This document shows positions 1 to 16,199 of a DNA stretch of 64,000 nt, piece by piece (position 1 is the stretch's first letter; each line of letters starts with the position of its first letter). Origin of the DNA: a virus. The notes below the pieces were generated by a model, which did not search any database, was not told the origin of the DNA, and was given only the letters and a program-made list of their open reading frames with translations. The stretch is taken from UHGV virus genome UHGV-1370141. The stretch is one strand, 5' to 3'. The translations under genes were made by a program, and so were the position numbers.

Positions 1-2
1 AA

Positions 3-419
3 CGTATTGGTGATAAACGCTGGTATGAGGATATAATTGCGTTACATAATCACATCTACCATTACGGTTTTCGCGAGATGTCGCTAGTTTTGGACAAAAA
101 CATGCCAAAACCGTTATCTCCCGATCACGTTATGAACTTTATTTACGGGTATTTTAGAATTCAGGAAAATATAGAAAGACTGAACTCGTCCAATCGAAGC
201 GAGTGCGCGTTTACGCTAAACGCGTTATTTGATGAACCCTGTAATACATGTAGTCGTTGTTTTCGTATCGAGTCTGACGGTGCCCAGAACCAAGTAAAAA
301 ATGTTGAAATCGTAACGCAGCATGGCTGTAGTGACTTGGCCAGAAAGGTTGGCTTAGAAGCTTACGATTATATACGACGAGTGGTAGGGGCTAAGAATAG
401 GATTCCAGCAAAATTGTGA
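3..419 (+). CDS. radical SAM enzyme paralog, C-terminal part (5' end lies before window start)
   Basis: Open frame from window start; translation RIGDKRWYEDIIALHNHIYHYGF...MPKPLSPDHVMNFIYGYFRIQENIERLN parallels C-terminus of the 2011..2949 radical SAM protein; Cys cluster CNTCSRC...C near end. Confidence 0.6.
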   Translation, partial: RIGDKRWYEDIIALHNHIYHYGFREMSLVLDKNMPKPLSPDHVMNFIYGYFRIQENIERLNSSNRSECAFTLNALFDEPCNTCSRCFRIESDGAQNQVKNVEIVTQHGCSDLARKVGLEAYDYIRRVVGAKNRIPAKL

Positions 420-480
420 TATTTTTACAGAGAATGAATTATAATGTGCCTTAGCTGGCACTGAACCAGTAGGTGTTAAA

Positions 481-879
481 ATGGCGATTGGTTTATCTTC
501 TTTAAAAGCGCGTTTGGATAATATAGATTCTTCCGCGCTAAAAAACACTGGAGCAGTACAGAACTATATTCGTGGAAAGGCTACGAATAATGTCGATCTA
601 TTTGGCGGCCAACCTAAAAACCATTACGACTGTGGCGGTAGCTGTAGCTGGACGTGCTCTAGTTGTTCTGGTGGTTGTACCGGTAATGCTTCAGGAGGTT
701 GTGGTTCCTCATGTTCAGCAAACTGTGTTTCTGGTTGTAGTTCTGGATGTTCAGGTTGCTCTAGTTCATGTTCTGGAGGCTGCACGGGGACATGTATAGG
801 CCAATGTACGACTACATGTACAGGTACATGTAGTCGTACCTGTCATGGTGGCTGTTCACAATCGTGTACGGGAAGATAA
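481..879 (+). CDS. Cys/Ser/Gly-rich small protein, putative RiPP precursor peptide A (132 aa)
   Basis: About 50-aa leader-like N-terminus then core with ~25 Cys in repeated C-S-x-x-C units; shares leader and HY(D/N)C(G/N)GGCSW(T/S)CS motif with the next ORF; sits beside radical SAM/SPASM genes. Confidence 0.55.
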   Translation: MAIGLSSLKARLDNIDSSALKNTGAVQNYIRGKATNNVDLFGGQPKNHYDCGGSCSWTCSSCSGGCTGNASGGCGSSCSANCVSGCSSGCSGCSSSCSGGCTGTCIGQCTTTCTGTCSRTCHGGCSQSCTGR

Positions 880-882
880 GAA

Positions 883-1092
883 ATGATAAGTCTTAAAAAC
901 ATACGCGACAGATTAGTAACGGCAGAAGGGTACATTACCACAGCAGGAGCAAACAACTATATTGCAAACCAAGGTACAGTGTCATCTACTAATAACCTTT
1001 CTGGTTTACCGTTGAGTCACTATAACTGTAACGGTGGGTGTAGCTGGTCCTGTAGCGGTAGTTGTAGCCGTGGTGCTGGCGGTAGTAAGTAG
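883..1092 (+). CDS. Cys-rich small protein, putative RiPP precursor peptide B (69 aa)
   Basis: Paralog of 481..879 (LSHYNCNGGCSWSCSGSCSRG); starts 4 nt after the previous stop. Confidence 0.5.
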   Translation: MISLKNIRDRLVTAEGYITTAGANNYIANQGTVSSTNNLSGLPLSHYNCNGGCSWSCSGSCSRGAGGSK

Positions 1093-1115
1093 TAGAAACG
1101 TGTCAGAGGTATTCA

Positions 1116-2003
1116 ATGAAAAACGATTTACATTTAGCATATAACACTACATTTAACCATCCTTTGCAAATCTCTTCTCCAGATTCTGTACGTTATCATT
1201 TAAGTGATGACGTTCGTTTAATTACCATGCTACCTGGCGAATGGCCGAAATTACGGGGCCGTGATATCGTCAACCGTGATAATATCTCCGTAGAAAATAC
1301 TTTTACAATTCGTGATCTGCCGGTCGAACGTGTGATTGTTTTTACAGGAGATGATGAACTTTATGGAATGATTGTTGATGGTAAATACTTCTTCAGTGAC
1401 GGGGTTTTAAATGCTGGTAGCGATTTAGAACTTTTTTTTACACCGTTTGCTGAGCTTGACGCTAAGCCTATGGTTCGCAGATGGTGGAGTCCAGATTACA
1501 TGGGGGCTTTTCCGTATTACTATACTCTTGTTGGTAAGGATGTTGAAGAGTATTCCGATAGTGAACCATACACCAACATTGAAGGTTATCAGGACCTCGG
1601 AATTGCACATTTAGCTGATTTAATGGCTTATAGCTATAAGTTCGAATGGATTCGTGAACGTTCTGTTTGGAAAGCCATTACTGACGACCATGTTATTACG
1701 AAACGTATTCGTAAACCATGGATGCAACATCTTGTTCAAATACGATTTGGCCAAAGTCCAGTAACCGAGGCTGATATTTCTAAACTTGTTAGTTTTTTAT
1801 TGTCTAAGGTTGAATTGACTGATGAAGAAGCCGAAGCTGTTAAGCCGATGCTTGATCGTATTGTGACCTTAGAAGACCTCAAAAGAATGAATAGTCGTTA
1901 TAACGATCTTAATCGGTTGCTAGAGGCGTATAATTCGACAAAGGTTTTAAAACCTGGAGTCAATTTCGACGAAGATCCGTTGTTCGCTATCGACTATAAT
2001 TAA
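1116..2003 (+). CDS. hypothetical protein (295 aa) within the radical SAM cluster
   Basis: Long ORF between precursor-like genes and radical SAM genes, same strand, tight spacing. Confidence 0.55.
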   Translation: MKNDLHLAYNTTFNHPLQISSPDSVRYHLSDDVRLITMLPGEWPKLRGRDIVNRDNISVENTFTIRDLPVERVIVFTGDDELYGMIVDGKYFFSDGVLNAGSDLELFFTPFAELDAKPMVRRWWSPDYMGAFPYYYTLVGKDVEEYSDSEPYTNIEGYQDLGIAHLADLMAYSYKFEWIRERSVWKAITDDHVITKRIRKPWMQHLVQIRFGQSPVTEADISKLVSFLLSKVELTDEEAEAVKPMLDRIVTLEDLKRMNSRYNDLNRLLEAYNSTKVLKPGVNFDEDPLFAIDYN

Positions 2004-2010
2004 ATAATTA

Positions 2011-2949
2011 ATGGAGTCACCTGCAATGGCGACCAATGCGGAACCAAAATTATCAGATCAGTTATTTGACAATCCAACAATATTAGCCGTTATTACTACA
2101 TCCAAATGTAATCTGGACTGTAGTTTCTGCGGCGGAGCCTATTACATGAATCGTGAAGATTCTTCTCGAGAGTTTCAACGTGACCGAATTATGGAGGCGT
2201 TAGAAGCTAACCCAACAATCACCGAGATTCAATGGACGGGTGGTGAGCCTTTGTTAGCCACTCGTAAAATTGAGGCGTTTGTTGACGAGTTAAAAGTAAT
2301 TCGTCCAGAGCTCAAACATCAGTTATATACCAACGGTTTAAAGATGCGTAAAACGCATCTCCCGTTGTTAAAACAATTTGATAATGTGTATGTTAGCATC
2401 GACGGGTTTGAGTTGTCTGAACGCCCTTTTAAGCGTTTTATTAACGATGGTTGCTACGAAGCTTTAGAAGTAATGCATGAGCTTGAAAATGTTCATACAT
2501 GGGCCGTTTTAACTCGAGAACAGTTGGGTAACAAACGGTGGCATGAAGACATTATTGAGCTTCATAATGCGATCTATCACTACGGTTATCGTACCATGAC
2601 GTTGCTGTTAGACGCGAATATGCCAAAACCGTTATCTCCCGATCACGTTATGAACTTTATTTACGGGTATTTTAGAATTCAGGAAAATATAGAAAGACTG
2701 AATGTTTCCAACTCGAAAAGGTGTGACTATGTCGTAAGCAAAGTTTTTGATGGTGGGTGTAACGTATGCAGCAATAGTTTATGGTTAAGAGCAGATGGAA
2801 CCGAATATCAGTTGCAAAATGCCCCGAGATTATTAGAATCGGGATGTAACCAATTAGCTTGTTCCATCGGGTTAGAAGCCTACGAGTATATTCGACGAGT
2901 GGTTATGGCCAACCGTAATAGTGGAGTATTAAATGAACCAAGAAAATAA
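2011..2949 (+). CDS. radical SAM enzyme (312 aa) with C-terminal auxiliary Cys cluster
   Basis: CxxxCxxC motif (TTSKCNLDCSFCGG) near N-terminus; C-terminal cysteines CDYVVSKVFDGGCNVCS...GCNQLAC. Confidence 0.8.
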   Translation: MESPAMATNAEPKLSDQLFDNPTILAVITTSKCNLDCSFCGGAYYMNREDSSREFQRDRIMEALEANPTITEIQWTGGEPLLATRKIEAFVDELKVIRPELKHQLYTNGLKMRKTHLPLLKQFDNVYVSIDGFELSERPFKRFINDGCYEALEVMHELENVHTWAVLTREQLGNKRWHEDIIELHNAIYHYGYRTMTLLLDANMPKPLSPDHVMNFIYGYFRIQENIERLNVSNSKRCDYVVSKVFDGGCNVCSNSLWLRADGTEYQLQNAPRLLESGCNQLACSIGLEAYEYIRRVVMANRNSGVLNEPRK

Positions 2950-4255
2950 TTACCCGAAACAGTTGACTTACCAGATTGTTACAAACTTGTCGTGTAATTT
3001 GGACTGTGAGTATTGTTACGAGCGTAAATATCCCCGCAATAACAAAGCAGCAGATATTGTAGATTTTCTTCATGCCTGTTTCGAGCGTGATAAAGATTTA
3101 CCAAACGTAGAAGTCGTCATTGACATTATCGGCGGCGAGCCGTTTATGCAGCCTAAGCTTCTAATGGCCGCTTTCGAAACAGCCGAGCAGTTGTGTGAAG
3201 AACATAAACGCCCGTTTATGTTTAGTATCTCTACTAATGGGACATTATTAGATAGGCCGTTGAACAGGGAAATTATTGAACGTTGGAAGGACAGACTTTC
3301 TATCGGGGTGTCTATTGATGGGTTACCTGAGTCGCACGATAAGTACCGTATTTTTACAACGAGTCGCGAAGGTTCTTACGAGGCCGCTGTACGTGGTTAC
3401 AATTATCTAAAAGAAGTAGGTATCGCGGAGCTTGGGGTTAAAGCGACATTTACTTTGGAAACGCTCCCACATTATGCGGCGGGTATGAAATCCCTAATCG
3501 ATTTGGCTGGAGGTGGAACCATTTCTGGTAACGTAACCTTCGAAGACATTATGCCACGGAGTATGGCTACGTCGATAGCGCTACAAATGATGGATGTAGT
3601 CGATTATTGGGTTGAAAAGGGTTTACACACCAACCCACGTAATACCCTATCACATATCATCCCGGAAGGGTTAGATTTCGACACTATCTGGGAACCGAAC
3701 TGGCGGGATCAGCTACTTTACAACGATACTGTACGTTTAAACCCGGAACGCTTGCGTCCGTTCTGCGGGACATTAACTCACATGACTTGTTTAGGGTTTG
3801 ACAGGAAGATTTTCGGTTGTAACCGTTTCATGTCGACTGTAACGTCACGTTCTGCGGTATTTGAGTTAGTCGGTCGTGAGTTTGTTAGCTTAGACGGTGG
3901 GAAACTGCTGGAAGAGATTCAGACGCAATACACCAACTATCCTGAGACGTGCTTAGGTTGTCCGATGAAACACGCTTGTGGTAGCTGTGCAGCAGCTTCC
4001 TACGAGAATGGGGAAGGGACGTTAGAAGACCGTAAAGCGTATCACGCTGAACGTCGTCAATGTGGTTGGACAACTGCAAAATTAATGGTCGCGGAATACT
4101 GGAAACAGAAGATGGGTACAACATCTGTGAAGGATTTCCACGATAATAGCATGTGTTACTGCCCTCGCTGTGTACGTGAACGTGCCCAAAAAGAAAAACA
4201 ATTGAGAGAAGCCAAAGATGAAGCCAATTCTGATCCACAATATTACGAAGCGTAA
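2933..4255 (+). CDS. radical SAM / SPASM-domain enzyme (440 aa), anSME-like maturase
   Basis: CNLDCEYC radical SAM motif; GGEP motif; C-terminal CLGCPMKHACGSC SPASM-type cluster; overlaps previous gene by 17 nt. Confidence 0.85.
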   Translation: MNQENNYPKQLTYQIVTNLSCNLDCEYCYERKYPRNNKAADIVDFLHACFERDKDLPNVEVVIDIIGGEPFMQPKLLMAAFETAEQLCEEHKRPFMFSISTNGTLLDRPLNREIIERWKDRLSIGVSIDGLPESHDKYRIFTTSREGSYEAAVRGYNYLKEVGIAELGVKATFTLETLPHYAAGMKSLIDLAGGGTISGNVTFEDIMPRSMATSIALQMMDVVDYWVEKGLHTNPRNTLSHIIPEGLDFDTIWEPNWRDQLLYNDTVRLNPERLRPFCGTLTHMTCLGFDRKIFGCNRFMSTVTSRSAVFELVGREFVSLDGGKLLEEIQTQYTNYPETCLGCPMKHACGSCAAASYENGEGTLEDRKAYHAERRQCGWTTAKLMVAEYWKQKMGTTSVKDFHDNSMCYCPRCVRERAQKEKQLREAKDEANSDPQYYEA

Positions 4256-4790
4256 ATTCCGTTTTCTGGAAAAGTTTTTAGAAACTACGAAACTGTTTGG
4301 CTGTTATGTGCAGATTAACGGCGAAGATTTCAATGACGATGTTAAGCGTTTATTAATTCGTCACGGAATCACCGTTGTTATCCCGATGTATTGTACAGAA
4401 CTTACCGAACTTTCTGTGGCCGAAATCGAGAAACAAAATCCAGGCTTTGAACAGCGCGTGCTGGAATTTCCTAAACATAAAATCGTTCTTTTACGCCGCG
4501 CTTTGCAAGAGCCGAGCGTTGAATCTGTTGCTGCTCTAGGTTTATCGTTTCCTGGTGTGACAATTTATGTCACACGAAACCCAGAGTCCACCATCGATGG
4601 TTTTTACGATGAAAGGGAAACTTTTCATAGTTTAGTTTATCCCGAGCTTACAGAAGACGAACGTCAAGGACTACATATTGACTGGGACTCAAATTTTGAT
4701 AGTAAGTTTCGTAAAATCGATTTTGATCTTCTGATCGAGCTGGGTTTAATTAAAGGAGAAGACGAATGCCTGCTCTTGACAAAAGCTTAA
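4218..4790 (+). CDS. hypothetical protein (190 aa)
   Basis: ORF overlapping upstream gene end, consistent with operon; start codon uncertain. Confidence 0.5.
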   Translation: MKPILIHNITKRKFRFLEKFLETTKLFGCYVQINGEDFNDDVKRLLIRHGITVVIPMYCTELTELSVAEIEKQNPGFEQRVLEFPKHKIVLLRRALQEPSVESVAALGLSFPGVTIYVTRNPESTIDGFYDERETFHSLVYPELTEDERQGLHIDWDSNFDSKFRKIDFDLLIELGLIKGEDECLLLTKA

Positions 4791-5440
4791 TAAACGAAGA
4801 TATTCGCGCCAGATTTTTTAGCCGACTTTCCCCAATTGATCGCCACGGAAACTTTTTGGGTCATATAGGTACTGAAGATCGCGGCAGAACGGGTTTTTGT
4901 ACAATGCTTCATTACAAACTACTCGATGGCATGTCCGATGAAGACGCGTTAGATCAAATGCGTAGTTACAATATGTCAGATATTGAAGCAAATTTCACCC
5001 TGAAAAAAGCAAAAGAGTTCATTTCAGATGTATTGGAGATAGATCTGGATGAAATTCGAAGTAACGTTCGTTCAACAGCACGATATATTTATTTAGATGT
5101 TCAAAAGATCATGAAGGCGTTGGAGTCGCGTTACGAAGCAGAACGTTACGAACCAATTCAGCTGAATGATCGTCATTTTCAGGCTGATGCAATCTCCCGA
5201 CAAATGTTAGGGCAATATATCCAATCTGAAACTGCGCCAGAATATTGGTTGGATACCGCCAATACGCGTTTAGAACCCTTTACATTAGAAGAATGTAAGG
5301 AACTATTGTCCGAGATCGTAAAACGTGATCAGAAACTGCATGGACAAATGACCGCGCAGAAAAAAGAGCTTCGCCTCTTAGCTGAACAGCGTGACTACGA
5401 CACTATCCGTGCACTTGCACTGGAAATGGGATTAGAATAA
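4766..5440 (+). CDS. hypothetical protein (224 aa)
   Basis: ORF overlapping previous gene, followed by strong terminator. Confidence 0.55.
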   Translation: MPALDKSLINEDIRARFFSRLSPIDRHGNFLGHIGTEDRGRTGFCTMLHYKLLDGMSDEDALDQMRSYNMSDIEANFTLKKAKEFISDVLEIDLDEIRSNVRSTARYIYLDVQKIMKALESRYEAERYEPIQLNDRHFQADAISRQMLGQYIQSETAPEYWLDTANTRLEPFTLEECKELLSEIVKRDQKLHGQMTAQKKELRLLAEQRDYDTIRALALEMGLE

Positions 5441-5444
5441 AAAA

Positions 5445-5487
5445 TACCTACCTCCGTAAAGGAGGTAGGTAAACTTATTATTTTTTT
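5445..5487. terminator. bidirectional rho-independent terminator between convergent gene blocks
   Basis: Perfect 11-bp inverted repeat tacctacctcc / ggaggtaggta with 5-nt loop, T-run downstream and A-run upstream. Confidence 0.75.
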
Positions 5488-5509
5488 GTTATAGTAGTTG
5501 ACTTAGCGG

Positions 5510-6040
5510 TTAAGCAGTAAAACCGTCCAATTCACCGTTGGTGGTGGCCAGGTCAATACGATTATCGACAACCTTCGGTGTAATTACGAAAGTTGCCATT
5601 ACACCCGGTTTATAACGGAGGTTCTGTTCAGTAACGGTGCACGTCACGGTACGCAGAGTGACGTTTTCATGTTCGTCTTTCTGGTCTTCGGTGCTGTACA
5701 CAACGTCACCTGGCGCGATAGCGTCGTCAGGTTTTACTTTGTTGATGTAATATTGTAACCAAGCGCGGAGTTCGTTTTCTTGAACCCAGCGAGACAGATC
5801 ATCAGTTAGTTCAATCCGTCCTACAACACCTGGCTCCAGACGATCGTAATGCAGTTCGATTGCACCTTTGAAATTCTCAGAACCTGGTAGTGCAGTCATG
5901 GTAACTTTGGTATTCTTACTTTCGCCTTCCAGCGCAGTAGGGAGACCAAAGGACACTTCTTTATCAGTAATCTGATGTGGTAGCTCAGTGTTAGCAGCAT
6001 TATAAAGCGCGACCAACATCATCTGGTTAGTAGCGGCCAT
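5510..6040 (-). CDS. hypothetical protein (176 aa), paralog of 6112..6684
   Basis: ORF; C-terminus ...GELDGFTA shared with neighbour. Confidence 0.6.
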   Translation of the reverse strand: MAATNQMMLVALYNAANTELPHQITDKEVSFGLPTALEGESKNTKVTMTALPGSENFKGAIELHYDRLEPGVVGRIELTDDLSRWVQENELRAWLQYYINKVKPDDAIAPGDVVYSTEDQKDEHENVTLRTVTCTVTEQNLRYKPGVMATFVITPKVVDNRIDLATTNGELDGFTA

Positions 6041-6111
6041 TATCTTAGGTCCTTAATAGAACAAGTTAGAGAAATATCGGGGGAGGTCACCCCCCCCCCG
6101 ATTTAACTTAC

Positions 6112-6684
6112 TTAGCCACCGACACCCGGCGCAGTGAAGCCATCAAGTTCACCTTCCAGACCGCCCAGTGCTACCTTCTCAGGAGCTGGGTTGGAATAAG
6201 TGAAAGTAGCAATAGTACCCGCCAGGAATTTAATGTGGCCATCGTTTACTTTGACAGTGTAAACTTTAGCACCGCTGTCGCCTTCGGATTTAACGATAGT
6301 GAGTTCGCTCTCTGCAAACGCGTCATCGACATAACCTTTAGTAACCATTTCTTTGTTCAGTTTGGTTACAATGGCAGAGTTTTCCAGATCGAGACTACCA
6401 GCTTGTTCGTAAGCTTTAGCACCGATCAGGTCTTGGGATGCCAGACGGATATAATGGAATTCTTTCTCGCCTTTGAAGTTCTGGCTTTCTGCCTTGGCGG
6501 TCAGTGTAATTTTGGTGTTACGACCAGCGTCTCCGCTGTGCGCTTCGACAGCACCAAAATCGACATCACCAACCGTCAGATTAGAAGCGGTTGCAGAGTT
6601 TTTAGCAATTACAGCTTCGATGAGCTGTTGTTTGAAGGCTTTAGCCATCTTTTTTACCTCGTAAGTGGTAGGGGTGGATTGCAT
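6112..6684 (-). CDS. hypothetical protein (190 aa), paralog of 5510..6040
   Basis: ORF; similar length and C-terminal GELDGFTA motif. Confidence 0.6.
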   Translation of the reverse strand: MQSTPTTYEVKKMAKAFKQQLIEAVIAKNSATASNLTVGDVDFGAVEAHSGDAGRNTKITLTAKAESQNFKGEKEFHYIRLASQDLIGAKAYEQAGSLDLENSAIVTKLNKEMVTKGYVDDAFAESELTIVKSEGDSGAKVYTVKVNDGHIKFLAGTIATFTYSNPAPEKVALGGLEGELDGFTAPGVGG

Positions 6685-6786
6685 AAGAAAGTTATTTTAG
6701 ACATTTCCTAAAATATAGATATGACGGTTGGCAGTAGGCGCTAACCTGAAAAAATAATTTTTCTTAATTTTAATAAGGGTGAGTTT

Positions 6787-7266
6787 ATGCTAAAACGCAT
6801 TCTCGTGGTCGTTGCTTTTGTAATGACGTTGGCAGGTTGTGCTATTCAGCCGAACGCAGAAGGTCAGTTCTCCACCGTACCTGTTGACCAACATGATATG
6901 GTCATTTACACCTGTACAGGTGCTTCTCAAGAATTCGTCGATTTTAAACCGGTACCGTCTAGCCTAAAACTGATGCCCCTTTCGGTGTTAGTCATGGATA
7001 CAGGGGCGAATTGGGTCGCTACATGGGACGAAGGTAAAATCGAATCTCCGCAACTTTATAAAGACCTGTTAGGTAAGGTGGACGGTAACTTAAACGTTGT
7101 TACCGGTGAGCGCTATTACCGTGTAAACGGGTTACTGTCAAAAACTCCAACGTTTGCGTATTCTACCATCAACTACAAAACAGGTGAAGGTAAAGGTGTA
7201 ACGTTCTTCAGATGTCACGAAGGTAGCATTCCGGATACCGGCACTATGCTGCACCCGGTAGAATAA
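6787..7266 (+). CDS. putative lipoprotein (159 aa)
   Basis: N-terminal signal peptide ending in lipobox LAGC; lone plus-strand gene in minus-strand block; own terminator. Confidence 0.6.
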   Translation: MLKRILVVVAFVMTLAGCAIQPNAEGQFSTVPVDQHDMVIYTCTGASQEFVDFKPVPSSLKLMPLSVLVMDTGANWVATWDEGKIESPQLYKDLLGKVDGNLNVVTGERYYRVNGLLSKTPTFAYSTINYKTGEGKGVTFFRCHEGSIPDTGTMLHPVE

Positions 7267-7270
7267 TAAA

Positions 7271-7306
7271 TACCCTCCTGCTTAGCAGGAGGGTAGGTTT
7301 ATTTTG
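7271..7306 (+). terminator. rho-independent terminator
   Basis: Inverted repeat accctcctgc / gcaggagggt followed by tttatttt. Confidence 0.7.
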
Positions 7307-7386
7307 TCCGTAGAACGCGCTAGAACGCGTTCTAAGACGGTTTATACAAAATAAGGTACAATCATCCTAAGTTTCGGTTTACGCGC

Positions 7387-7902
7387 TTAGATTTTAACTA
7401 AGGCGCTCCAATCGATAGGGCTTTGTTTCACGACTTTCGCAGTACCGCGATTCGGTGACCAGAACGTGATATTCGGTTGGTTACGAACGTCGATATGCAA
7501 CCAACTGATGTCGCATTCGATAAAGTGAATAAACGGAAACTCATCAGGATTAGCGGCAATATAATCGTGGACTTGTTTTACCGTTGAATCTAACAGTGTC
7601 GCGTCGAACGCATTACCGAACTTGTGCTGACTCCCTGAATCGGAATAGAGTTGTAACGCACGTTGTTTATAGTTACCGCCCTTAGGCTTTTCTTGATTGA
7701 TGAAAAAGTCTAAGGTTCTTAGGCCACGCTGTTGCGCAGCAGACGAGTTAATCACCATTCTGCCGAAACGGTTACGAATCTGTTGCAGCGAAATCATTAA
7801 CAACGGGTTCATAAACCGAATTGCAGAATCACCGTATTTGGCGATGTACGATTGCGGTACTAACTCTTTGAGTTTAAAGTTACTCGGATTTGGATGAAAC
7901 AT
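7387..7902 (-). CDS. peptidase M15-like cell wall hydrolase (171 aa)
   Basis: SQHKFGNAFD (SxHxxGxAxD) zinc-binding motif and later WLHID histidine, typical of M15/VanY-type peptidases. Confidence 0.5.
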   Translation of the reverse strand: MFHPNPSNFKLKELVPQSYIAKYGDSAIRFMNPLLMISLQQIRNRFGRMVINSSAAQQRGLRTLDFFINQEKPKGGNYKQRALQLYSDSGSQHKFGNAFDATLLDSTVKQVHDYIAANPDEFPFIHFIECDISWLHIDVRNQPNITFWSPNRGTAKVVKQSPIDWSALVKI

Positions 7903-8554
7903 CTTCCCTCCCAGACAGAAAAGCCCGTTTGATGTTCAGGTATTTGACATTAACGGGACAACCTGTGGTGATATCAACACGTTCGTGGTCAGGAATAGCA
8001 GGCTCCTTAAACTCACGAACGAACAAATAGTTTCGATTGTAATCTAACGTACGGTAATCGTTAGTGGTATAAGACGGCTTCGCGTTAGGGTCTACGTAAG
8101 CATCCCAACCGAACCCCGCCACGGCTTTATAAAACGTTTGGCAGATATACGGTGAGATTTCCAACGACTGCATAATACGCAGGAATGTTAAGTCAGAGAA
8201 CTCTTTATCGATAATACGCGAAACGTTACCACCCGGTGTCATGGGATAGCTACGCTCCGTGTTACATTTTTGATAGAGTAAGTCGTGAATGCAGGCCGCA
8301 GGTGCCCACGGTCCGTCAGGATGGAAAATTCCCTGGAGGTGTTCAGGAATTGACGCTAAATCGGTAACGAACCCTTTCGGTGCTGTTAACCACAGTTGCG
8401 TGTCAGGCAATACACCCGTTAAATAAACCGCACGGTCTAAGTGTACGTGGTCGTGATAAATCTCACGTAACGTAAACGGATAATGGTAATCCTCCGTTAA
8501 TACAAACCACTTATTGTCTAAACGTTTATATTGAAGCTTCTCCATTACCCACAC
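7880..8554 (-). CDS. hypothetical protein (224 aa)
   Basis: ORF. Confidence 0.5.
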   Translation of the reverse strand: MWVMEKLQYKRLDNKWFVLTEDYHYPFTLREIYHDHVHLDRAVYLTGVLPDTQLWLTAPKGFVTDLASIPEHLQGIFHPDGPWAPAACIHDLLYQKCNTERSYPMTPGGNVSRIIDKEFSDLTFLRIMQSLEISPYICQTFYKAVAGFGWDAYVDPNAKPSYTTNDYRTLDYNRNYLFVREFKEPAIPDHERVDITTGCPVNVKYLNIKRAFLSGREDVSSKSE

Positions 8555-8661
8555 CTTTCCTTACAAAAACCAGAAGAACTCTTGCCCACGCTTTTCGTCT
8601 TTACGTTTTCGACCAGACGTTAACGCTTTCCACAATAACGCTAAGAGTTTAGCAAACCAGT

Positions 8662-9252
8662 TCATTTTACTAACCCCGCTTTTACCGCATAATCTGCCAT
8701 TTCTCTGAAGACGCGGCCGTACCAACCGTAGGTGTATTTCTCGTTTCTCTTACGTTTTTCGGAGATTTCCGTGTAGTAAGTTACTTGGTGCGAGATTAAC
8801 GCAAAGATTAAAATGCTCAACCCTTCATCTTTACGATATTTCAGGTAGGCGTTCAACGCACCCAGTGTCTTAGGACCCATACCGCCGTCGGTGTCAATAT
8901 CTGCGTAAAGTTTCCCTTCGTTATTTAAAACGTTGAGAATACGTTGTAACGATTTCACACAGTTAGCACGCCCTGCGTTAATACCAAAATCAAACATCCG
9001 GTCTGCGAGTAACGGTGAGATAGCGAAAATCTCATCAAGTTTGAGCTTCTTCCACCAACCGCGATCGTAAATATCAAACGCTTGTGCACGGGTGAGGTCT
9101 TTCATTTTCCCTGTGTAGCCGTATTCGCGTGCAGTAGTTAAAGTTACACCGTGACAGGTTTCTCCACCTTTGTCGTCAGGGTCGTTGACGTACCCGCCTT
9201 CTAAATCCGTTTTGGATTCAATAATACCTTCTTTAGTCCAACGTTCAGCCAT
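8662..9252 (-). CDS. GH108-family muramidase with peptidoglycan-binding domain (endolysin-like, 196 aa)
   Basis: EGGYVNDPDDKGGETCHGVT motif typical of glycoside hydrolase family 108. Confidence 0.7.
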   Translation of the reverse strand: MAERWTKEGIIESKTDLEGGYVNDPDDKGGETCHGVTLTTAREYGYTGKMKDLTRAQAFDIYDRGWWKKLKLDEIFAISPLLADRMFDFGINAGRANCVKSLQRILNVLNNEGKLYADIDTDGGMGPKTLGALNAYLKYRKDEGLSILIFALISHQVTYYTEISEKRKRNEKYTYGWYGRVFREMADYAVKAGLVK

Positions 9253-9315
9253 TTTCGTTCAACTCCTCTTTTACACAAAAAAGAAAAGAGGGTGGGGATT
9301 ACCCCCACCCTGTAA

Positions 9316-9795
9316 TTATTTTTTCTTCTTAGCGCGTGATGGCTTAGCTGGCGGTGTTTCAACAGCCGGTTTACGTGCAACACGCACTGTAAAACCACCA
9401 ACCCAGGTCAGACACTCAGGACGGAAGAAAATACCGTGTTCGATTGCGCTACCGTCCAACGGTAACTCACCAACCTGTTCTACCCATACATCGTCTTCTG
9501 TAAGGGTTAGGCTATACTGTTCGTTAATTACGGGCAGTAGGTCAGCGGTAGTCGTTGCAGACTCCACTAACAGTTTCGGTAATACGTTCAGGAAATACAA
9601 ACCTGCGTCAATGCGGTTATACTGGAACGTTTGTTCGTTAGTGTAACCGAGATTCTTAATTGACGCAACTGTGATTTCGGTATTGTACGTACCGGTGGTT
9701 ACGACCGGGTCACCCAGCGTGACTTTGGTGGTGTCGAACTCAGCGTCTGGGTTAGCCTTTTTAATAAGGTCGAAGATAGTTTCTTGATTGGTCAT
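9316..9795 (-). CDS. hypothetical protein with lysine-rich C-terminus (159 aa)
   Basis: ORF. Confidence 0.5.
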   Translation of the reverse strand: MTNQETIFDLIKKANPDAEFDTTKVTLGDPVVTTGTYNTEITVASIKNLGYTNEQTFQYNRIDAGLYFLNVLPKLLVESATTTADLLPVINEQYSLTLTEDDVWVEQVGELPLDGSAIEHGIFFRPECLTWVGGFTVRVARKPAVETPPAKPSRAKKKK

Positions 9796-9808
9796 TACTG
9801 TAATCCTC

Positions 9809-10657
9809 TTAATCTAAGAATCCCGGTAAGACCGGATTAGTCTGCGCTAATTCAATCTTCGACTTCGGACGATCGGTGCCGTTAAAGTGGATTAACAGAT
9901 TACCGGTCAGGTTAGAACACAGCGGGCTGAGCGTCAGCACCAACACACGCGTGAACTTCGTATTTGCGCCTTCGTAACCTGCGGTTGGACCATCGTAAAT
10001 AATCTTCGCACCATACAGGTTGTTAGCCGCGTTCTTAGGTACACTTACCCATTTCTCATCAACGACGTTAGCCAGTTTAGTGGCTAACTCAGCCAGGTCG
10101 ACGGTGTCGTTGATAGTAATCGGGTCAAGGTAATCTTTTTCTGCGGTGAAATCAATCGGGTGAGAATAAACCGCAGCGTTACCTTTCTTAGTAGACGGAT
10201 ACTCTACCAGATTCTCTAATTGAGTAACTGGTAACAGTTCAGTCAGGTCAATAGGATCACGCAGCGTAAGTGTTACTACACCGCACCACTCGTAAGATTT
10301 CTCGTTAGCGGTAAGCTGATGGGTTTCACCTTCAACTTTTGCGTCAACGATATCCGAGGGTAAAATATTTAGGTTGTATTTTGCGTTAATCGCATTAAGC
10401 AAATCCGATGCGGTTACCACACTGTCGTTACCGAACACCAACTCACCGGTTAGGTAGTCAGGTAAATTACGACGGTGGTAAGTCACGGTTAAAGTAGTAG
10501 ACTCATCGCCTTTGAGTTTAGAGGTCAGAACCACCTGGGTATCAACCCCAGTACCGGTAGGTTCTCCGATATCAACATCACTGAAAGTCAACGGTGGACT
10601 AATATTGTTTTCAGTGTTGATGAGTTTTAGCAGTTTCTGTTTTGACGTAAGAGACAT
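9809..10657 (-). CDS. hypothetical protein (282 aa)
   Basis: ORF. Confidence 0.5.
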   Translation of the reverse strand: MSLTSKQKLLKLINTENNISPPLTFSDVDIGEPTGTGVDTQVVLTSKLKGDESTTLTVTYHRRNLPDYLTGELVFGNDSVVTASDLLNAINAKYNLNILPSDIVDAKVEGETHQLTANEKSYEWCGVVTLTLRDPIDLTELLPVTQLENLVEYPSTKKGNAAVYSHPIDFTAEKDYLDPITINDTVDLAELATKLANVVDEKWVSVPKNAANNLYGAKIIYDGPTAGYEGANTKFTRVLVLTLSPLCSNLTGNLLIHFNGTDRPKSKIELAQTNPVLPGFLD

Positions 10658-10823
10658 CGCGTTAACTCACAGTAAGTAAAAAGGTTTAAGAGGTCGTTTT
10701 ACATCCCTCAGCCAGCATAGGAATAGTCGGGTAGGGTGTAAGTAAAGCGGTGTCAAAATAACAAAAAAGAAAAGGGAAAGAAAATTAATTCCGCTATAGA
10801 CCGAAGCCTATAGCGGAGAGTGG

Positions 10824-11255
10824 TTAGCGAACGTTGTGTGCTAAGTACATTAGCGTACGGGTGTCGATATCACGAGAAGTTTGTGACATTTGGTTCAGTA
10901 GAGTGCTGGCAGTAGGGTCGTTGTAAACACGACTTAACCACTCGTCAACCATTTCTGGTACAGTGTCGACTAAAAGCGGATAGTTAAGATTTTCCAGTGT
11001 GTATTCAACGAATTCGTGCATCAGATTCTGGTCACGATGCATAGTGTCACCTAACTCACCTACAGGGTACTCTTCACGAGGACGTTTACCCCAGCTACAG
11101 ATGTGCATGTAGTTAGTATTCACAATTTCTTGATATTCTTCTAACTTAACTAAATCGAAGTCAGTATTTGGACGACAGAAACCTGCTAAAACGCCTAAAG
11201 CAATCGGATTGTTACGAATGTAGTTACGGATATCATCTTTTAATAGGAAAAACAT
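10824..11255 (-). CDS. hypothetical protein (143 aa), paralog of 12521..12964
   Basis: ORF; similar N-terminal pattern and Y-P-x-G-x-x-G motif to 12521..12964. Confidence 0.5.
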   Translation of the reverse strand: MFFLLKDDIRNYIRNNPIALGVLAGFCRPNTDFDLVKLEEYQEIVNTNYMHICSWGKRPREEYPVGELGDTMHRDQNLMHEFVEYTLENLNYPLLVDTVPEMVDEWLSRVYNDPTASTLLNQMSQTSRDIDTRTLMYLAHNVR

Positions 11256-11331
11256 TTTAATGCTCCTTTAGGTAAATACAATAATAGAGGGGTGGATTAC
11301 CACCCCTTGGTTGAATTTAGAACGTCGTTAA

Positions 11332-12498
11332 TTAACGACGTTTTTGACAATTAGGGCAGTTGCAACCTACGCCAGAAGATATTTCTCTAAAGTACGCGTC
11401 GAGTAAGTGCTCGTTATTATTAAGAAAACGAACTGACCACAAGTCACGCAGATGAGTTTTTAACTTTCCAATAATACCGGGTTCATAGTTGAGTAGAATG
11501 GTAAGTGCGTTGTCTGTGTAAGTCCACTGACGGACTTTCTCAGGAAACCAACGAGTGATATCACGCATAAACGTATCGGCATCTTCTTTCCCAATAGCAG
11601 TGATTGTCAGAAGACGTAGACGGTTGTTAACAAACTCATCAATGAGACTATGAATTTCTTCTTCAAAAGCAATGTTCCACCATTTCCATTTAAAGGTGAG
11701 TTTTTCGCCCTCGAGTTTGGTCTCTACCTTGGTAGAATAGAATGCTGTCAAAGTGTCATTAATCGCTTCGGCATCTGGACCAGTGTATGTAAAGGCTTTC
11801 AACACATCGGACTCTTCACGCGGTTGCTCCCCTTCTTCGAGTTGGTTAAGAAAAATTTTCTTTGTTAACTTACGCATACAGATGTTCAATTGATTAATAA
11901 CAACAGGGTCATTATCAACAATCACTGTTAAAGTATCGCCAACATAATTAGACTGGCGAATTTTCTCCTTGTGTTCGTGAACAACTATACGCATGAATTC
12001 GTCCGCTTCACCTTTTCCGATACCTTGAAACGAAATAAGACGAACGGTGTCGTTATCGATCATCTCAGCGACAGAACGTACTTCTTCCATGAGGTTACGA
12101 TCGTCTTTCTTCAATCGAACGACGAGTTTGCTGTTATCCCAGTAAATGCCTAAATCGTCGGGATAGAAGGTCTCTAACGCCTCTTTAATATCCTTAATCT
12201 TTTCGCCTTCGTACCAGAGGACGTGCGGTTCGTCTTTCTGCTGCTCTTCGACTTTCGGTTGTTCAGTCTCGGCCGTTTCTACCGGGTTGAGCAACTCACC
12301 GATTTCCACCGCGATAGTGTCGCAAAGATAATCGTTGCAGTGAGTCCAGTAGAACACGATGCTTTCATCATTGACCTGCTCTACGCGGAAATGTACACCT
12401 TTATCCAGGAATATACGATAAAGTTGATCGAGTAACTGTGCTTCAGGAACCGGACGGATTTCGGTTTTAACGAGCGGTGTAATCTCGATATTATACAT
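11332..12498 (-). CDS. hypothetical protein (388 aa) with internal duplication and C-terminal CxCxxC
   Basis: ORF; two similar ~70-aa segments; ends GVGCNCPNCQKRR. Confidence 0.55.
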   Translation of the reverse strand: MYNIEITPLVKTEIRPVPEAQLLDQLYRIFLDKGVHFRVEQVNDESIVFYWTHCNDYLCDTIAVEIGELLNPVETAETEQPKVEEQQKDEPHVLWYEGEKIKDIKEALETFYPDDLGIYWDNSKLVVRLKKDDRNLMEEVRSVAEMIDNDTVRLISFQGIGKGEADEFMRIVVHEHKEKIRQSNYVGDTLTVIVDNDPVVINQLNICMRKLTKKIFLNQLEEGEQPREESDVLKAFTYTGPDAEAINDTLTAFYSTKVETKLEGEKLTFKWKWWNIAFEEEIHSLIDEFVNNRLRLLTITAIGKEDADTFMRDITRWFPEKVRQWTYTDNALTILLNYEPGIIGKLKTHLRDLWSVRFLNNNEHLLDAYFREISSGVGCNCPNCQKRR

Positions 12499-12520
12499 GT
12501 CAATTTTCCTTTTTGGTAAA

Positions 12521-12964
12521 TTATTCGTAGTTGTGCTTAAGGAACTCTAAAGCACGTTGGTCATTGGTTAATGCTACTGCCGACATTTTCTTTAAGGCTT
12601 GACGACAGTAAGCGTCACTCACAATACGTTGTTGCCAAGCATTGACAATTTCCGTAACGGTTTCTCCTTCTACAGCCGTATTGAGTTTATCGATAAAGTG
12701 ACGTCCCATCAGATACGCAACTGCGTAGTCCGTGAACATCTCTGTACCGAAATCACCGTCTGGGTAGTCAGCACGTTTCCGCACTGACATATCGGTAACG
12801 ATTTGATACGACGACTTCACCACTTCGTGGAATTTTTCTACCGTTAAGGTGTTAAGGTCCATACCCGATAAAGAGAGTGAAGCCAGTACCGGAATACTGG
12901 CTGGGTATTTACGAATGTAATCACGCAACTCTAATTTCAGTTCTTTGCTCATTGAACTCACCAC
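12521..12964 (-). CDS. hypothetical protein (147 aa)
   Basis: ORF. Confidence 0.5.
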   Translation of the reverse strand: MVSSMSKELKLELRDYIRKYPASIPVLASLSLSGMDLNTLTVEKFHEVVKSSYQIVTDMSVRKRADYPDGDFGTEMFTDYAVAYLMGRHFIDKLNTAVEGETVTEIVNAWQQRIVSDAYCRQALKKMSAVALTNDQRALEFLKHNYE

Positions 12965-13431
12965 TTATATTCAAACAAATAGCTGGAGAAAACATCGGCG
13001 AAATTTTCTAAATCATCGGTGTCAATCAAATCCAATCCTTTATTCAGAGATCCTAGCCATGTACCGTCGTAGCAAACTGCCATTACAGAATGGCGAACTT
13101 TTAGTTTACCGTCATTAGTAAATGAACGTTCACCGTTCTCGCCCGCCTCGTAGCGTTCCCCATTGTCAGCCAAGATAACCAGTTTGTCTAACGGGATGAA
13201 AGCGTCCATTACAACAAAGTCATAACGTGCAGTGACATGATTGTCGGTTACAGTTAAACGTTCAATAATGTAAAGGTTTGAATCACGTTTCAGCTCTTTG
13301 CTTTTTCTCCATCCATTCTTAATCAGCGAAAAAGCATCGCTTCTGCCAGTAAACAGATCTTTAATTTTATAGGTTTTTTCTACTGAATGGAAAGCGGCAT
13401 GAACGTTGCTGTTGATTTCTAAGCTAAACAT
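12958..13431 (-). CDS. hypothetical protein (157 aa)
   Basis: ORF. Confidence 0.5.
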   Translation of the reverse strand: MFSLEINSNVHAAFHSVEKTYKIKDLFTGRSDAFSLIKNGWRKSKELKRDSNLYIIERLTVTDNHVTARYDFVVMDAFIPLDKLVILADNGERYEAGENGERSFTNDGKLKVRHSVMAVCYDGTWLGSLNKGLDLIDTDDLENFADVFSSYLFEYKW

Positions 13432-13479
13432 ATTCTATTCCTTATATACAAGTCGAAGAGTTAATGTGTTAATTTTCGT

Positions 13480-13974
13480 TTAGAGATGTTTTTCGATAAC
13501 TTCCGAAACTAATTCGTAAAGGTCATCGTCGCTGCACACTTCTACACTAATTCCGATATCGATACTACGACTACGGAACCCAACTTTGAGCGATTTACCG
13601 AACTCGGTTTGAAAGGCTTTATAGAGGATGTTCTTATCTTCTTCTGTGAGGCGAACAGGTAGTCTAACGGTGAACTTGTAATGTTCTTTCGAAACAAGTT
13701 CGTTGGAATAATTGAGTCGTTTGGCTCCACGCGTTCCGACAATCTGTGTTACCAGCTTAAACATTTCCTCGTCGGTATACGCTGTTGCGCTATAACCGAT
13801 ATCGATAGTGTTTCTGCGGAAACCTGCGCAGAACAAAGCACCGAACTGTTCACGGAATTCTTTGTACAGGACGTCTTTTTCTACGTCCAGTAATCCGTAA
13901 CCCAAGTCAACAGTAAATTTGTATTTTTCTTTGTCAACCAATTCATTAGTGTAATCAAGTCTAGTGAAGTTCAT
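13480..13974 (-). CDS. hypothetical protein (164 aa) built from two tandem ~80-aa repeats
   Basis: ORF; halves LDYTNELVDKEKYKFTVDL... and LNYSNELVSKEHYKFTVRL... are clearly homologous. Confidence 0.55.
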   Translation of the reverse strand: MNFTRLDYTNELVDKEKYKFTVDLGYGLLDVEKDVLYKEFREQFGALFCAGFRRNTIDIGYSATAYTDEEMFKLVTQIVGTRGAKRLNYSNELVSKEHYKFTVRLPVRLTEEDKNILYKAFQTEFGKSLKVGFRSRSIDIGISVEVCSDDDLYELVSEVIEKHL

Positions 13975-14025
13975 GGTATATGCTCCTAAAATGGTTTTAG
14001 TTAAGTGAGAGCTTTCGTACTCTCA

Positions 14026-14050
14026 CCTAAGTAATATATATCTGAAAATA
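14026..14050 (-). promoter_or_regulatory. conserved promoter-like motif (copy 1) with adjacent hairpin
   Basis: Minus-strand TCAGATATATATTACTTAGG, one of three near-identical copies; followed by hairpin 14005..14026; upstream of gene 13480..13974. Confidence 0.5.
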
Positions 14051-14056
14051 TTTTAA

Positions 14057-14395
14057 TTAAAACCCAGCAATAAAACTGCCTAATGAAAGACGCTGTAAGT
14101 ATTTTGGCTTACGTGCCAGGTAACAGTTCTTAGGATTACCTATCGCCATCTGTGCAACCGCACGTTCTAAACGCGGTGCTTCTAAGATAGCACGATAGTT
14201 CCCTTCGTAATGCATTAACCATGCACACTCTTCAACAAAACGTTTTGCTTCTCGGTATTCTAACGTACGAATACGTTTCTTACCACGATACAAAACCACA
14301 TCACCATTACTACGAAATACAACCGTTTCACGATTCATTGATTTTACCCCATAATTCTCGCCGTAAAACTTGTTTATACATATCGACCTGAGCAC
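14057..14395 (-). CDS. hypothetical protein (112 aa)
   Basis: ORF. Confidence 0.45.
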   Translation of the reverse strand: MLRSICINKFYGENYGVKSMNRETVVFRSNGDVVLYRGKKRIRTLEYREAKRFVEECAWLMHYEGNYRAILEAPRLERAVAQMAIGNPKNCYLARKPKYLQRLSLGSFIAGF

Positions 14396-14642
14396 GACAA
14401 TCTTTTGTGGCCTTCTCTAGTATTAAAAAACCAGCTTCTTTTGGCAATTTCTCCTCGCAAATGTACTCGGTAATAGCACAAAGCTTGTAATAAAGCTCTA
14501 GCTGTTCCCTGAGCGATTTTTCCTGCACTTTAATTAATTCATCTTGCTTAGCAATAACCTTTTCATTAACTTCGCAGACAGGACATTTCTTACGTTTAAA
14601 TAGCCGAATTAGTTTAAAAACCATTATCGCCACCGTTTGCAA
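14328..14642 (-). CDS. hypothetical protein (104 aa)
   Basis: ORF, overlaps neighbours; start uncertain. Confidence 0.4.
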   Translation of the reverse strand: MQTVAIMVFKLIRLFKRKKCPVCEVNEKVIAKQDELIKVQEKSLREQLELYYKLCAITEYICEEKLPKEAGFLILEKATKDCRAQVDMYKQVLRRELWGKINES

Positions 14643-14922
14643 TCCAGGTTGCTACACGAACGTGTGCACTGTGAAAGTTAGAGACTAAGAGTATTACACC
14701 ACCTAACGTACGTGGAACGCGTAAGGCTTCGAAACGACGACAGTAAGAACGTACACAATACTCAGAACCTAAGATAACGATTTCGCAGTATTCTGAACGA
14801 ATCGGCAGTAGTTGAGAAACGAGTTTATCACACGTTTCTTTGTTGTCTTCTAATAACCCGCCACTGAGAATATAGTTGACGATGTTCTCAGGTGCCGATG
14901 TGTTTGCGATTTTATTTTCCAT
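14614..14922 (-). CDS. hypothetical protein (102 aa)
   Basis: ORF. Confidence 0.4.
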   Translation of the reverse strand: MENKIANTSAPENIVNYILSGGLLEDNKETCDKLVSQLLPIRSEYCEIVILGSEYCVRSYCRRFEALRVPRTLGGVILLVSNFHSAHVRVATWIANGGDNGF

Positions 14923-14924
14923 CG

Positions 14925-15323: not shown

Positions 15324-15357
15324 CTTATCTCCCTCGGGAAAACCGAGGGAGTGCTAA

Positions 15358-15639: not shown

Positions 15640-15641
15640 TT

Positions 15642-16157: not shown

Positions 16158-16199
16158 TTAATGCTCCTTTAGGTAAATAGTGGGGTAATTAAGCCTTCG

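Follow-up and report, generated by a model that had tools for sequence, protein, structure and literature searches.

The first 5,487 positions of a 64,000-nucleotide stretch of viral DNA (UHGV virus genome UHGV-1370141, here called the window) hold genes for two paralogous cysteine (Cys)-repeat proteins, three radical S-adenosylmethionine (rSAM) genes, one of which is cut by the window edge, and genes for three unknown proteins. The best reading of this block, which we hold with moderate confidence, is that of a tail-fibre-associated structural module covalently stapled by rSAM enzymes of the phage. The window is 100% identical to the IMG/VR contig UViG_3300045988_078609 (224,831 bp; locus L016) and comes from an SPN3US-like (Seoulvirus-type) jumbo phage of the giant Salmonella type. 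An earlier reading made from the letters of the window alone (the sequence-only reading) had placed at least three rSAM genes beside the Cys proteins, and both this co-location and the coordinates of the open reading frames (ORFs) were confirmed. The features of the block are as follows, CX3 standing for repeats with Cys at every fourth residue:

3..419, + strand: C-terminal 138 aa of an extra small rSAM enzyme (partial ORF); the full gene, for 303 aa, begins upstream of the window
481..879, + strand: CysB, 132 aa; helical N-terminal segment of ~50 aa, CSWTC junction and CX3-repeat domain, 20 Cys
883..1092, + strand: CysC, 69 aa; N-terminal segment and junction as in CysB (HYNCNGGCSWSCSGSC), 4 Cys
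1116..2003, + strand: partner protein, 295 aa; SPN3US gp165 family, phrog_8030, orphan fold
2011..2949, + strand: small rSAM enzyme, 312 aa; SPN3US gp164; CNLDCSFC and three conserved C-terminal Cys
2933..4255, + strand: putative rSAM/SPASM maturase, 440 aa; SPN3US gp163; CNLDCEYC and a seven-Cys SPASM motif including CLGCPMKHACGSC
4218..4790, + strand: unknown protein, 190 aa; SPN3US gp162, phrog_7988
4766..5440, + strand: DUF4376 protein, 224 aa; SPN3US gp161, phrog_8169; last gene of the co-oriented block
5445..5471: hairpin with an 11-bp stem between the convergent + strand block and a minus-strand DUF7941 gene; marks the end of the block

In the identical contig, the order runs from a 1,727-aa gp168-like fibre/baseplate protein through a 401-aa gp167-like virion protein, CysA (130 aa), the full 303-aa extra small rSAM enzyme, CysB, CysC, the 295-aa partner and the small, putatively Twitch-type rSAM enzyme to the rSAM/SPASM enzyme, the 190-aa protein and the DUF4376 protein, and the window block is best explained as the distal half of a block of late genes that is linked to tail fibres, in a jumbo phage of the SPN3US type. 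CysA, CysB, CysC, the 295-aa protein, both rSAM enzymes and the 190-aa and 224-aa proteins are encoded in the same order in 13 SPN3US-like loci that represent several genera (among them SPN3US, Erwinia phages and Cronobacter CR5), and tblastn matched the N-terminus of the Cys proteins in 62 phage records. The strong terminator that had been proposed at the end of the block was borne out in part: the hairpin does stand there, but it lies between convergent genes and is followed by a T-run on the minus strand only.

Cysteine-repeat proteins and radical SAM enzymes

CysB and CysC are paralogs with the common motif M-x-I...R...HY[DN]C[GN]G[SG]CSW[TS]CS, and here sequence comparison agrees with the shared N-terminus and junction that the sequence-only reading had described. 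With CysA they have in common an N-terminal segment of ~50 aa and an invariant C-x3-C-S-(W/F)-(S/T)-C junction, and CysA and CysB carry an array of fixed length with ~20 Cys, one at every fourth residue. The 132-aa protein had been credited with about 25 Cys; the count is 20, and 4 in the 69-aa protein. In CysB, 15 of 19 Cys-Cys spacings are exactly four residues, and the core, with 20 Cys among 82 residues (versus 1.3% of residues in long ORFs), consists almost wholly of C, S, G and T, with no Asp or Glu except D50 just ahead of the first Cys. Runs of at least six consecutive C-x2-3 repeats occur in just one of 648 six-frame ORF segments of the window (at least 40 aa each). An alignment of 17 sequences from two paralog groups revealed that the 20 Cys columns are invariant and the intervening residues variable. 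Differences from SPN3US at first, second and third codon positions number 37, 36 and 94 for CysB and 10, 5 and 32 for CysC, and since they fall mainly at third positions, these frames are the ones under purifying selection; other reading frames across the Cys repeat are also open. The possibility that the Cys ORFs are an artefact or non-coding low-complexity DNA was ruled out by the third-position bias and the invariant Cys columns.

Of the three paralogs, CysC shows the highest conservation (91% identity to SPN3US, versus 69% for CysB). The sole PHROG match of the Cys proteins is phrog_6085, a family with no assigned function (CysB, E 8.3e-39; CysC, E 1.5e-24). Searches of NCBIfam gave CysB 17.6 bits (E 0.004) against TIGR04114, the Cys-rich repeat target, which is under the cut-off of 20 bits, and yielded no TIGR04114 match for CysC and no SCIFF-precursor match for the Cys proteins. 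In SPN3US, the three Cys ORFs lie on the reverse strand of NC_027402 (L002 4094..4486, 4497..4901 and 4917..5123), with counterparts in L001 at 4098..4490, 4500..4901 and 4914..5120. The SPN3US annotation lacks these true ORFs, gp166 (RefSeq gp100) having been called in the wrong frame, and genes 267 and 268 of Erwinia phage pEa_SNUABM_29 represent Cys ORFs called on the opposite strand.

Both complete enzymes pass the rSAM model PF04055 (312 aa, 52.8 bits; 440 aa, 56.0 bits; cut-off 29.5), and the CX3CX2C motifs CNLDCSFC and CNLDCEYC, as well as CLGCPMKHACGSC in the larger enzyme, are present as the sequence-only reading had stated. Ten Cys of the 440-aa enzyme (C21, C25, C28, C278, C296, C340, C343, C349, C352 and C377) are invariant among 18 homologs down to 30% identity. 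It is predicted to be of the SPASM type from seven of these invariant Cys and from near-full-length alignments to NCBIfam SPASM maturase models; the earlier assignment thus stands on these two grounds, but not on the Pfam SPASM model PF13186, which gave no match at E≤0.1 in a Pfam search. The best match is TIGR04115, the CXXX-repeat target maturase (119.8 bits, E 1.8e-34, model positions 3-344 of 359; cut-off 350), followed by PapB NF047865 (113.1 bits, E 1.5e-32; cut-off 340) and, after these, further maturases of Cys peptides, likewise far under their cut-offs. The only solved structure found by sequence is CteB 5WGG (E 3.6e-11); the SCIFF/CteB model TIGR03974 scored 55.2 bits (cut-off 425), its position 105 being aligned to query residue 19, and the anSME model TIGR03942 scored 56.2 bits (cut-off 349) over the rSAM core only. 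Because just 20 residues precede the cluster motif and alignments to families that bear a RiPP recognition element (RRE; RiPP, a peptide that is made by the ribosome and modified post-translationally) start around model position 85-105, the 440-aa enzyme appears to have no N-terminal RRE. Identities as QueE, NrdG, MoaA, viperin or anSME were considered for the rSAM enzymes and rejected, as they gave only weak rSAM-core matches; QueE, NrdG, MoaA and anSME were no better match, so that no rSAM family from outside the RiPP field was hit with high confidence. In its C-terminal tail past the SPASM domain, the 440-aa enzyme has an extra C-x-C-x2-C motif (CYCPRC, residues 407-415) that occurs in the SPN3US-like clade only (CNCYQC, CGCFNC and CNCAKC in relatives) and in none of the shorter homologs.

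In the 312-aa enzyme, C33, C37, C40, C250 and C279 are invariant and C253 is conserved in at least 90% of the aligned sequences; the three C-terminal Cys suggest one auxiliary cluster and a Twitch-like domain. The partial ORF at 3..419, rightly called a paralog before, is 61% identical to residues 171-300 of this enzyme (E 1e-60), that is, to 130 aa of its C-terminal part. The full gene is found in L016 and at L005 6576..7487, L005 being 93% identical to the window phage, and is not present in SPN3US, L009, the Erwinia phages or the remaining genera of the 13-locus comparison. The extra gene is a lineage-specific duplicate of 2011..2949 that was inserted between CysA and CysB. At the DNA level, window positions 2089..2717 are 75% similar to the upstream rSAM copy.

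The accessory proteins are less well connected. The 295-aa, gp165-like protein accompanies the module where it has two rSAM genes, and its confident AlphaFold2 (AF2) model (predicted local distance difference test score, pLDDT, 86.7) has no structural neighbour in PDB or BFVD. BLAST gave no match for the 190-aa and 224-aa proteins beyond SPN3US-like phages, and no homolog of the 190-aa protein is encoded in L007, L019-L086 or L169; as this protein is conserved in SPN3US-like phages only, its place in the system is uncertain. Membership is likewise uncertain for the 224-aa protein, which passes PF14301 (DUF4376; 29.7 bits, E 9.7e-7; cut-off 25) and weakly matches PHROGs labelled 'tail fiber protein' and 'virion structural protein' (E 0.005-0.008).

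Pairing of enzyme and cysteine-repeat gene across phages and bacteria

A pattern-plus-tblastn scan of IMG/VR with the SPASM-enzyme alignment, in which the best 80 of 192 candidates were kept, returned 79 loci, and these together with loci fetched earlier form a set of 86 phage loci; in a corresponding scan of bacterial genomes, the best 80 of 418 candidates were kept. As CX2-3-repeat ORFs we counted those that are co-oriented with and near the enzyme gene and contain at least six consecutive C-x2-3 repeats. Such an ORF lies in the flanks of the homologous enzyme gene in 79 of the 86 phage loci, the exceptions being truncated loci, one locus in opposite orientation, one jumbo phage with a lone rSAM pair and two loci with other Cys-repeat types. 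By contrast, just 12 of 80 heterogeneous bacterial rSAM/SPASM loci have one, and these 12 are among the better matches; because the genome scan retrieved mostly generic rSAM/SPASM loci (22-38% partial matches), it served as a control and not as a host survey. On the basis of the near-obligate co-occurrence and adjacency in phages and of the fact that NCBIfam curates TIGR04114 together with TIGR04115, we regard CX3 ORF and enzyme as an enzyme-substrate pair, and the Cys proteins are very likely the substrates of the rSAM enzymes. The RiPP-like pairing with maturases that had been read from the sequence holds to this extent, that the closest families are Cys-directed peptide maturases and that the Cys proteins travel with the enzymes across phages.

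The junction is distributed in step with the second rSAM gene: all 16 junction-bearing loci have at least two rSAM genes, and none of the 63 single-rSAM loci has the junction. Fifteen of the 16 were counted by script, and L007, whose C-x2-C-SWTC junction is outside the script pattern, was added by inspection.

Two further phage contigs carry related genes in other settings. At 6992..9071 of a 279-kb jumbo phage contig (L020/L021), a homologous pair of SPASM and small rSAM genes adjoins a large helicase-like ORF; the substrate of this pair may be encoded elsewhere, or its target may be another one. In a 136-kb phage contig (L085), two tandem CNCNY[AS]CTC-repeat proteins with 31-35 Cys each (3517..4736) are surrounded by six rSAM-like genes (1195..11234), which may constitute a separate multi-enzyme Cys-repeat system.

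Association with tail-fibre and baseplate genes

In the window phage, the Cys/rSAM module lies directly downstream of the gp168-like and gp167-like genes, and the gp167-like protein is a homolog of a virion structural protein (E 1.6e-103). In SPN3US, where the module comes after them, gp167-170 are virion proteins, gp168 being a tail or baseplate-periphery protein, and gp160 is a virion protein as well (PMC5694885, PMC5105663). A comparable setting was found in other phages. In a Deferribacter prophage (L007), whose SPASM enzyme is the closest non-jumbo homolog of the window enzyme (40% identity), a GpJ-like tail protein is followed by a 302-aa protein with fibre-type HxHDDRYYTE repeats and then by a gp165-like protein (E 4e-10 versus its window counterpart), a small rSAM enzyme (263 aa, E 1e-14) and the SPASM enzyme. 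The 302-aa protein has the junction NADQLGGQAGSYYRCSDCSWTC and a C-terminal stretch '...NADQLGGQAGSYYRCSDCSWTCSSSC' with ~100 residues of CX3 repeats; it matched PF12789 at E 0.008 only, and a tblastn search of phages with its N-terminus gave only three weak matches to archaeal viruses. In a lambda-like prophage (L169), tape measure, M-like, K-like and J-like genes precede a 475-aa fibre-CX3 protein (P0153), after which come a small rSAM enzyme, a gp165-like protein, a SPASM enzyme (35% identity, E 4e-67), an endolysin and a holin. The order in a gut myovirus (L024) is baseplate wedge, tail fibre, 340-aa Cys-rich protein, SPASM enzyme, second tail fibre and a reverse transcriptase of the diversity-generating retroelement (DGR) type, and in a 213-kb phage (L019) a baseplate wedge gene is followed by those for a 568-aa Cys-rich protein and two rSAM enzymes. 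The module is thus inside baseplate/tail-fibre blocks in at least five phage lineages.

The connection extends to the polypeptides themselves. An alignment of three lineages (the jumbo-phage proteins, L007 and L019) revealed an invariant junction G-x7-C-x3-CSW-x-C-x2-3-C. A profile of this region recovered 303 representative clusters among 1.84 billion proteins, with lengths of 60-1,803 aa, and often matched at the C-terminus of 200-560-aa proteins; in the representatives that were inspected, collagen-like, coiled-coil or repeated fibre motifs stand ahead of the junction. All inspected fusion proteins match phrog_6085, the CysB/CysC family, including its part before the Cys repeats, and among tail PHROGs P0163 matched a tail collar fiber (4.7e-9) and P0132 a minor tail protein (2.9e-7). 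In long Cys-repeat relatives, the CX3 array stands between or after putative carbohydrate-binding domains, for which Pfam gave matches below the cut-off (F5/8-type-C and CBM_4_9 only). In other phages, junction and CX3 array thus make up the C-terminal or the central part of long proteins, fibre- or adhesin-like, whose genes occupy the tail-fibre position. Judged by these alignments, the supposed leader and CSW junction of the jumbo-phage proteins are probably homologs of the segment that stands ahead of the repeats in long tail-fibre proteins of unrelated prophages.

Some neighbouring features were noted alongside. The DGR-type reverse transcriptase of L024 (10592..11713; phrog_1423, E 4e-108) is encoded just after the fibre gene downstream of the rSAM/SPASM gene, and fibre diversification there adjoins putative Cys-repeat maturation. 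In L023 (2994..5813), a 937-aa protein with no Pfam match has a central CX3 array of 180 aa between a jelly-roll-like N-terminal region and C-terminal 'WKNYDGTGTGTGPF' repeats, a layout that resembles an adhesin of several domains in which the Cys array is the stalk. Beyond the block, the window encodes on the minus strand two paralogous DUF7941 proteins with ELDGFTA ends (5510..6040 and 6112..6684). Both are homologous to SPN3US gp160 of paralog family B, for which very high abundance in the virion (>300 copies) has been reported. Further DUF7941 paralogs occur farther along the window, and between the first two stands, on the minus strand, a hairpin that resembles a terminator and includes about ten G in a row (6076..6102). 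An endolysin-like gene (7387..7902), a DUF1353 'tail assembly chaperone' (7880..8554) and a GH108 endolysin (8662..9252) follow on the minus strand (7387..9252), lysis and tail genes being interleaved just downstream of the Cys/rSAM block.

A proposed covalently stapled fibre module and its alternatives

We hypothesize that the SPASM enzyme acts after translation, in the reducing cytoplasm, and would use SAM-derived 5'-deoxyadenosyl radicals and two auxiliary clusters to convert the CX3 thiols into covalent cross-links. By analogy with PapB and CteB, these would most plausibly be thioethers to nearby Ser, Thr or Gly carbons, to which we give an even chance. The small rSAM enzyme, present only where the aromatic CSW junction occurs, could introduce a second modification, possibly at the junction, and the 295-aa orphan-fold protein could aid substrate presentation or assembly. 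The product would be a stiff stalk or tip, resistant to reduction and to proteases, that is part of, or docked onto, the baseplate or tail fibres (gp167-170); its cross-links would do the work of disulfides, which cannot be had in the reducing cytoplasm in which virions are put together. We consider it slightly more probable than not that the Cys proteins belong to the virion or its fibres. A wider version, in which an rSAM/SPASM-stapled CX3 module is used for fibre parts by several phage lineages that are not related to one another (SPN3US-like jumbo phages, lambda-like and P2-like prophages, gut myoviruses) and a second, Twitch-type rSAM enzyme targets CS(W/F)(S/T)C, is put forward tentatively.

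Several points weigh against a stapled fibre module. Virion presence and chemical modification of the Cys-repeat proteins are putative, and in published SPN3US virion proteomics gp161-166 were not detected and the Cys proteins are not listed; since the true ORFs are absent from the annotation that was searched, the non-detection of the Cys proteins is uninformative. The Cys proteins of SPN3US-like phages are encoded by small ORFs of their own rather than as fusions and could be released products or assembly factors, and for several fusion partners the tail-fibre assignment comes from weak or sub-threshold matches and gene order. The 440-aa enzyme scores under every curated NCBIfam cut-off, and the thioether chemistry is assumed from relatives, one of which (PapB) uses Asp/Glu acceptors that the phage cores do not have. 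AF2 gave no fold for the repeat region of a Cys-repeat protein (pLDDT 41), only the N-terminal helix. The rSAM pair of L020/L021 has no Cys-repeat ORF in its 7-kb flanks. Finally, the link between junction and second rSAM gene occurs in a single clade only, where it may reflect phylogenetic inertia, and it is on this account kept as an idea only.

Three other explanations were weighed against this module. The sequence-only reading had seen in the block a leader-plus-core, SCIFF-like peptide system, and a classical viral RiPP, in which CysA, CysB and CysC are leader-bearing precursors that acquire thioether rings and, after leader removal, are freed at lysis as toxin, antimicrobial or anti-defence peptides, has in its favour that the best enzyme matches are RiPP maturases and that in jumbo phages each Cys protein is a small polypeptide of its own, in which a core comes after an N-terminal helix. 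Bacterial relatives with true short precursors and exporters also exist (L095, L096, L105). L095 (Ruminococcaceae UMGS1858, 6404..16897) is a classical exported CX3 RiPP cluster with three tandem CX3 peptides of 59-70 aa, a 738-aa rSAM enzyme, two AMP-binding enzymes and two ABC exporters, unlike the phage loci, which are without that machinery; the absence of exporters argues only weakly, because a lytic phage would need none. Against such a peptide, long fibre proteins contain internal segments that are probably homologous to the 'leader', with its ~50 N-terminal aa and junction, and the module is embedded in tail-fibre/baseplate blocks of five lineages, while searches of Pfam, NCBIfam, PHROG and structures detected no protease, immunity gene or RRE and no exporter among the eight ORFs. 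In addition, the core syntenic block is strictly conserved in all SPN3US-like genera, whereas weapon genes usually vary, and the fixed number of ~20 Cys suggests a defined architecture. We therefore consider a released or secreted viral RiPP unlikely, and less likely than a hardened part of the virion, and do not uphold the SCIFF-like architecture that had been proposed.

It is also improbable that the modified Cys proteins are non-virion assembly factors, that is, fibre chaperones or scaffolds in the position of Tfa that aid folding or trimerization of gp167-170 and are not retained. The L169 and L024 modules do stand where lambda- and P2-type phages encode Tfa, gp161-166 were not found in SPN3US virions and the neighbouring DUF4376 protein has its weak tail-fibre PHROG matches, but the CX3 domain of L007, L169, L019 and many representatives is within the fibre polypeptide and could be a discarded chaperone only if cleaved off, one or two rSAM enzymes seem costly for a transient chaperone, and non-detection of proteins whose real ORFs are missing from the proteomics database says nothing. 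Very unlikely, in our judgement, is a metal-thiolate or unmodified Cys-rich protein, in which CX3 arrays would bind Zn, Fe or Cu (metallothionein-like or as an axial metal ladder) and the rSAM enzymes would act on another substrate. Cys at every fourth residue with small side chains would fit metal clusters, AF2 without ligands gives no fold and the modification of Cys is only inferred; yet enzyme and CX3 ORF are nearly always found together (79/86 loci), NCBIfam curates TIGR04114 with TIGR04115 as a pair and the closest characterized relatives all act on Cys-containing peptides.

Among known systems, the covalently stapled fibre module that we prefer is closest to the CXXX-repeat system of TIGR04114, TIGR04117 and TIGR04115, in which an rSAM/SPASM enzyme likewise adjoins a protein with Cys at every fourth residue. 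The window enzyme is only 24-28% identical to the TIGR04115 clade (119.8 bits versus 350), and its own clade adds a second small rSAM enzyme, a gp165-like partner and the aromatic CSW junction. However, the L024 gut-phage enzyme reaches 309.4 of the 350 bits and gut-phage Cys proteins pass TIGR04114 (41.9 bits, cut-off 20), and because these members come near or over the cut-offs, we place the window system as a distant branch of this in-silico family. To our knowledge, the CXXX-repeat family is defined in silico only, its chemistry and a link to tail fibres not being described in the literature searched. PapB, the freyrasin maturase (NF047865), is also an rSAM/SPASM enzyme that acts repeatedly on Cys along a peptide; it is the best model for the Deferribacter SPASM homolog (162.9 bits), and the alignment of the window enzyme starts at its model position 8, so that no long N-terminal extension is apparent. 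PapB links Cys to Asp/Glu of CxxxD/E motifs, and its products, unlike the proteins considered here, are small peptides. CteB (5WGG; TIGR03974) has a SPASM domain with two auxiliary clusters and forms Cys thioethers, but its N-terminal RRE has no counterpart in the phage enzyme, which aligns from CteB residue 105; SCIFF precursors are ~45 aa long with six Cys. HxsB and HxsC (TIGR03978/TIGR03977) resemble the phage system as a larger and smaller rSAM pair with a short-period repeat peptide, HxsC being the top match of the Deferribacter small rSAM enzyme (E 4e-13) and HxsB among the top matches of the large enzymes, but scores are far under the cut-offs, the substrate repeat is His-Xaa-Ser and not CX3, and there is no phage context. 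Virion parts are stabilized by other means in HK97, with its capsid isopeptide chainmail, and in T4, with His-coordinated iron in the long-tail-fibre tip. If the structural interpretation is right, the phage system would share with them rigidity for a virion part assembled in the reducing cytoplasm; homology is lacking, and their stabilization is autocatalytic or metal-based, in contrast to the dedicated radical enzymes of the window system.

The novelty that had been claimed for the block is to be narrowed. The cluster is conserved in SPN3US and its relatives, GenBank records already annotate the rSAM genes of SPN3US-like phages and NCBIfam has models for CXXX-repeat/rSAM pairs, whereas the literature searched, with incomplete coverage, contained no description of the rSAM-tail-fibre link, of the true Cys ORFs or of their chemistry. 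There is a substantial chance that the block represents a new class of virion protein modification. If so, it would be the first radical-SAM-matured structural protein of a virion and a new enzymatic post-translational chemistry in virion assembly, yielding parts of fibres able to withstand reduction, proteases and harsh surroundings. The annotations of SPN3US and many relatives miss or mis-call three conserved Cys genes, and existing proteomic and structural data merit re-reading in this light. The 69-aa CysC would be a minimal substrate for the chemistry, and thioether-stapled repeat scaffolds may be of interest to peptide engineers. The uncharacterized CXXX-repeat/rSAM family acquires a testable role in a tractable phage, SPN3US, for which amber mutants and virion proteomics exist. 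The phage form of the 'CXXX-repeat RiPP' family would then be a fibre-hardening system, which would account for the fact that rSAM genes are core genes in this whole group of jumbo phages.

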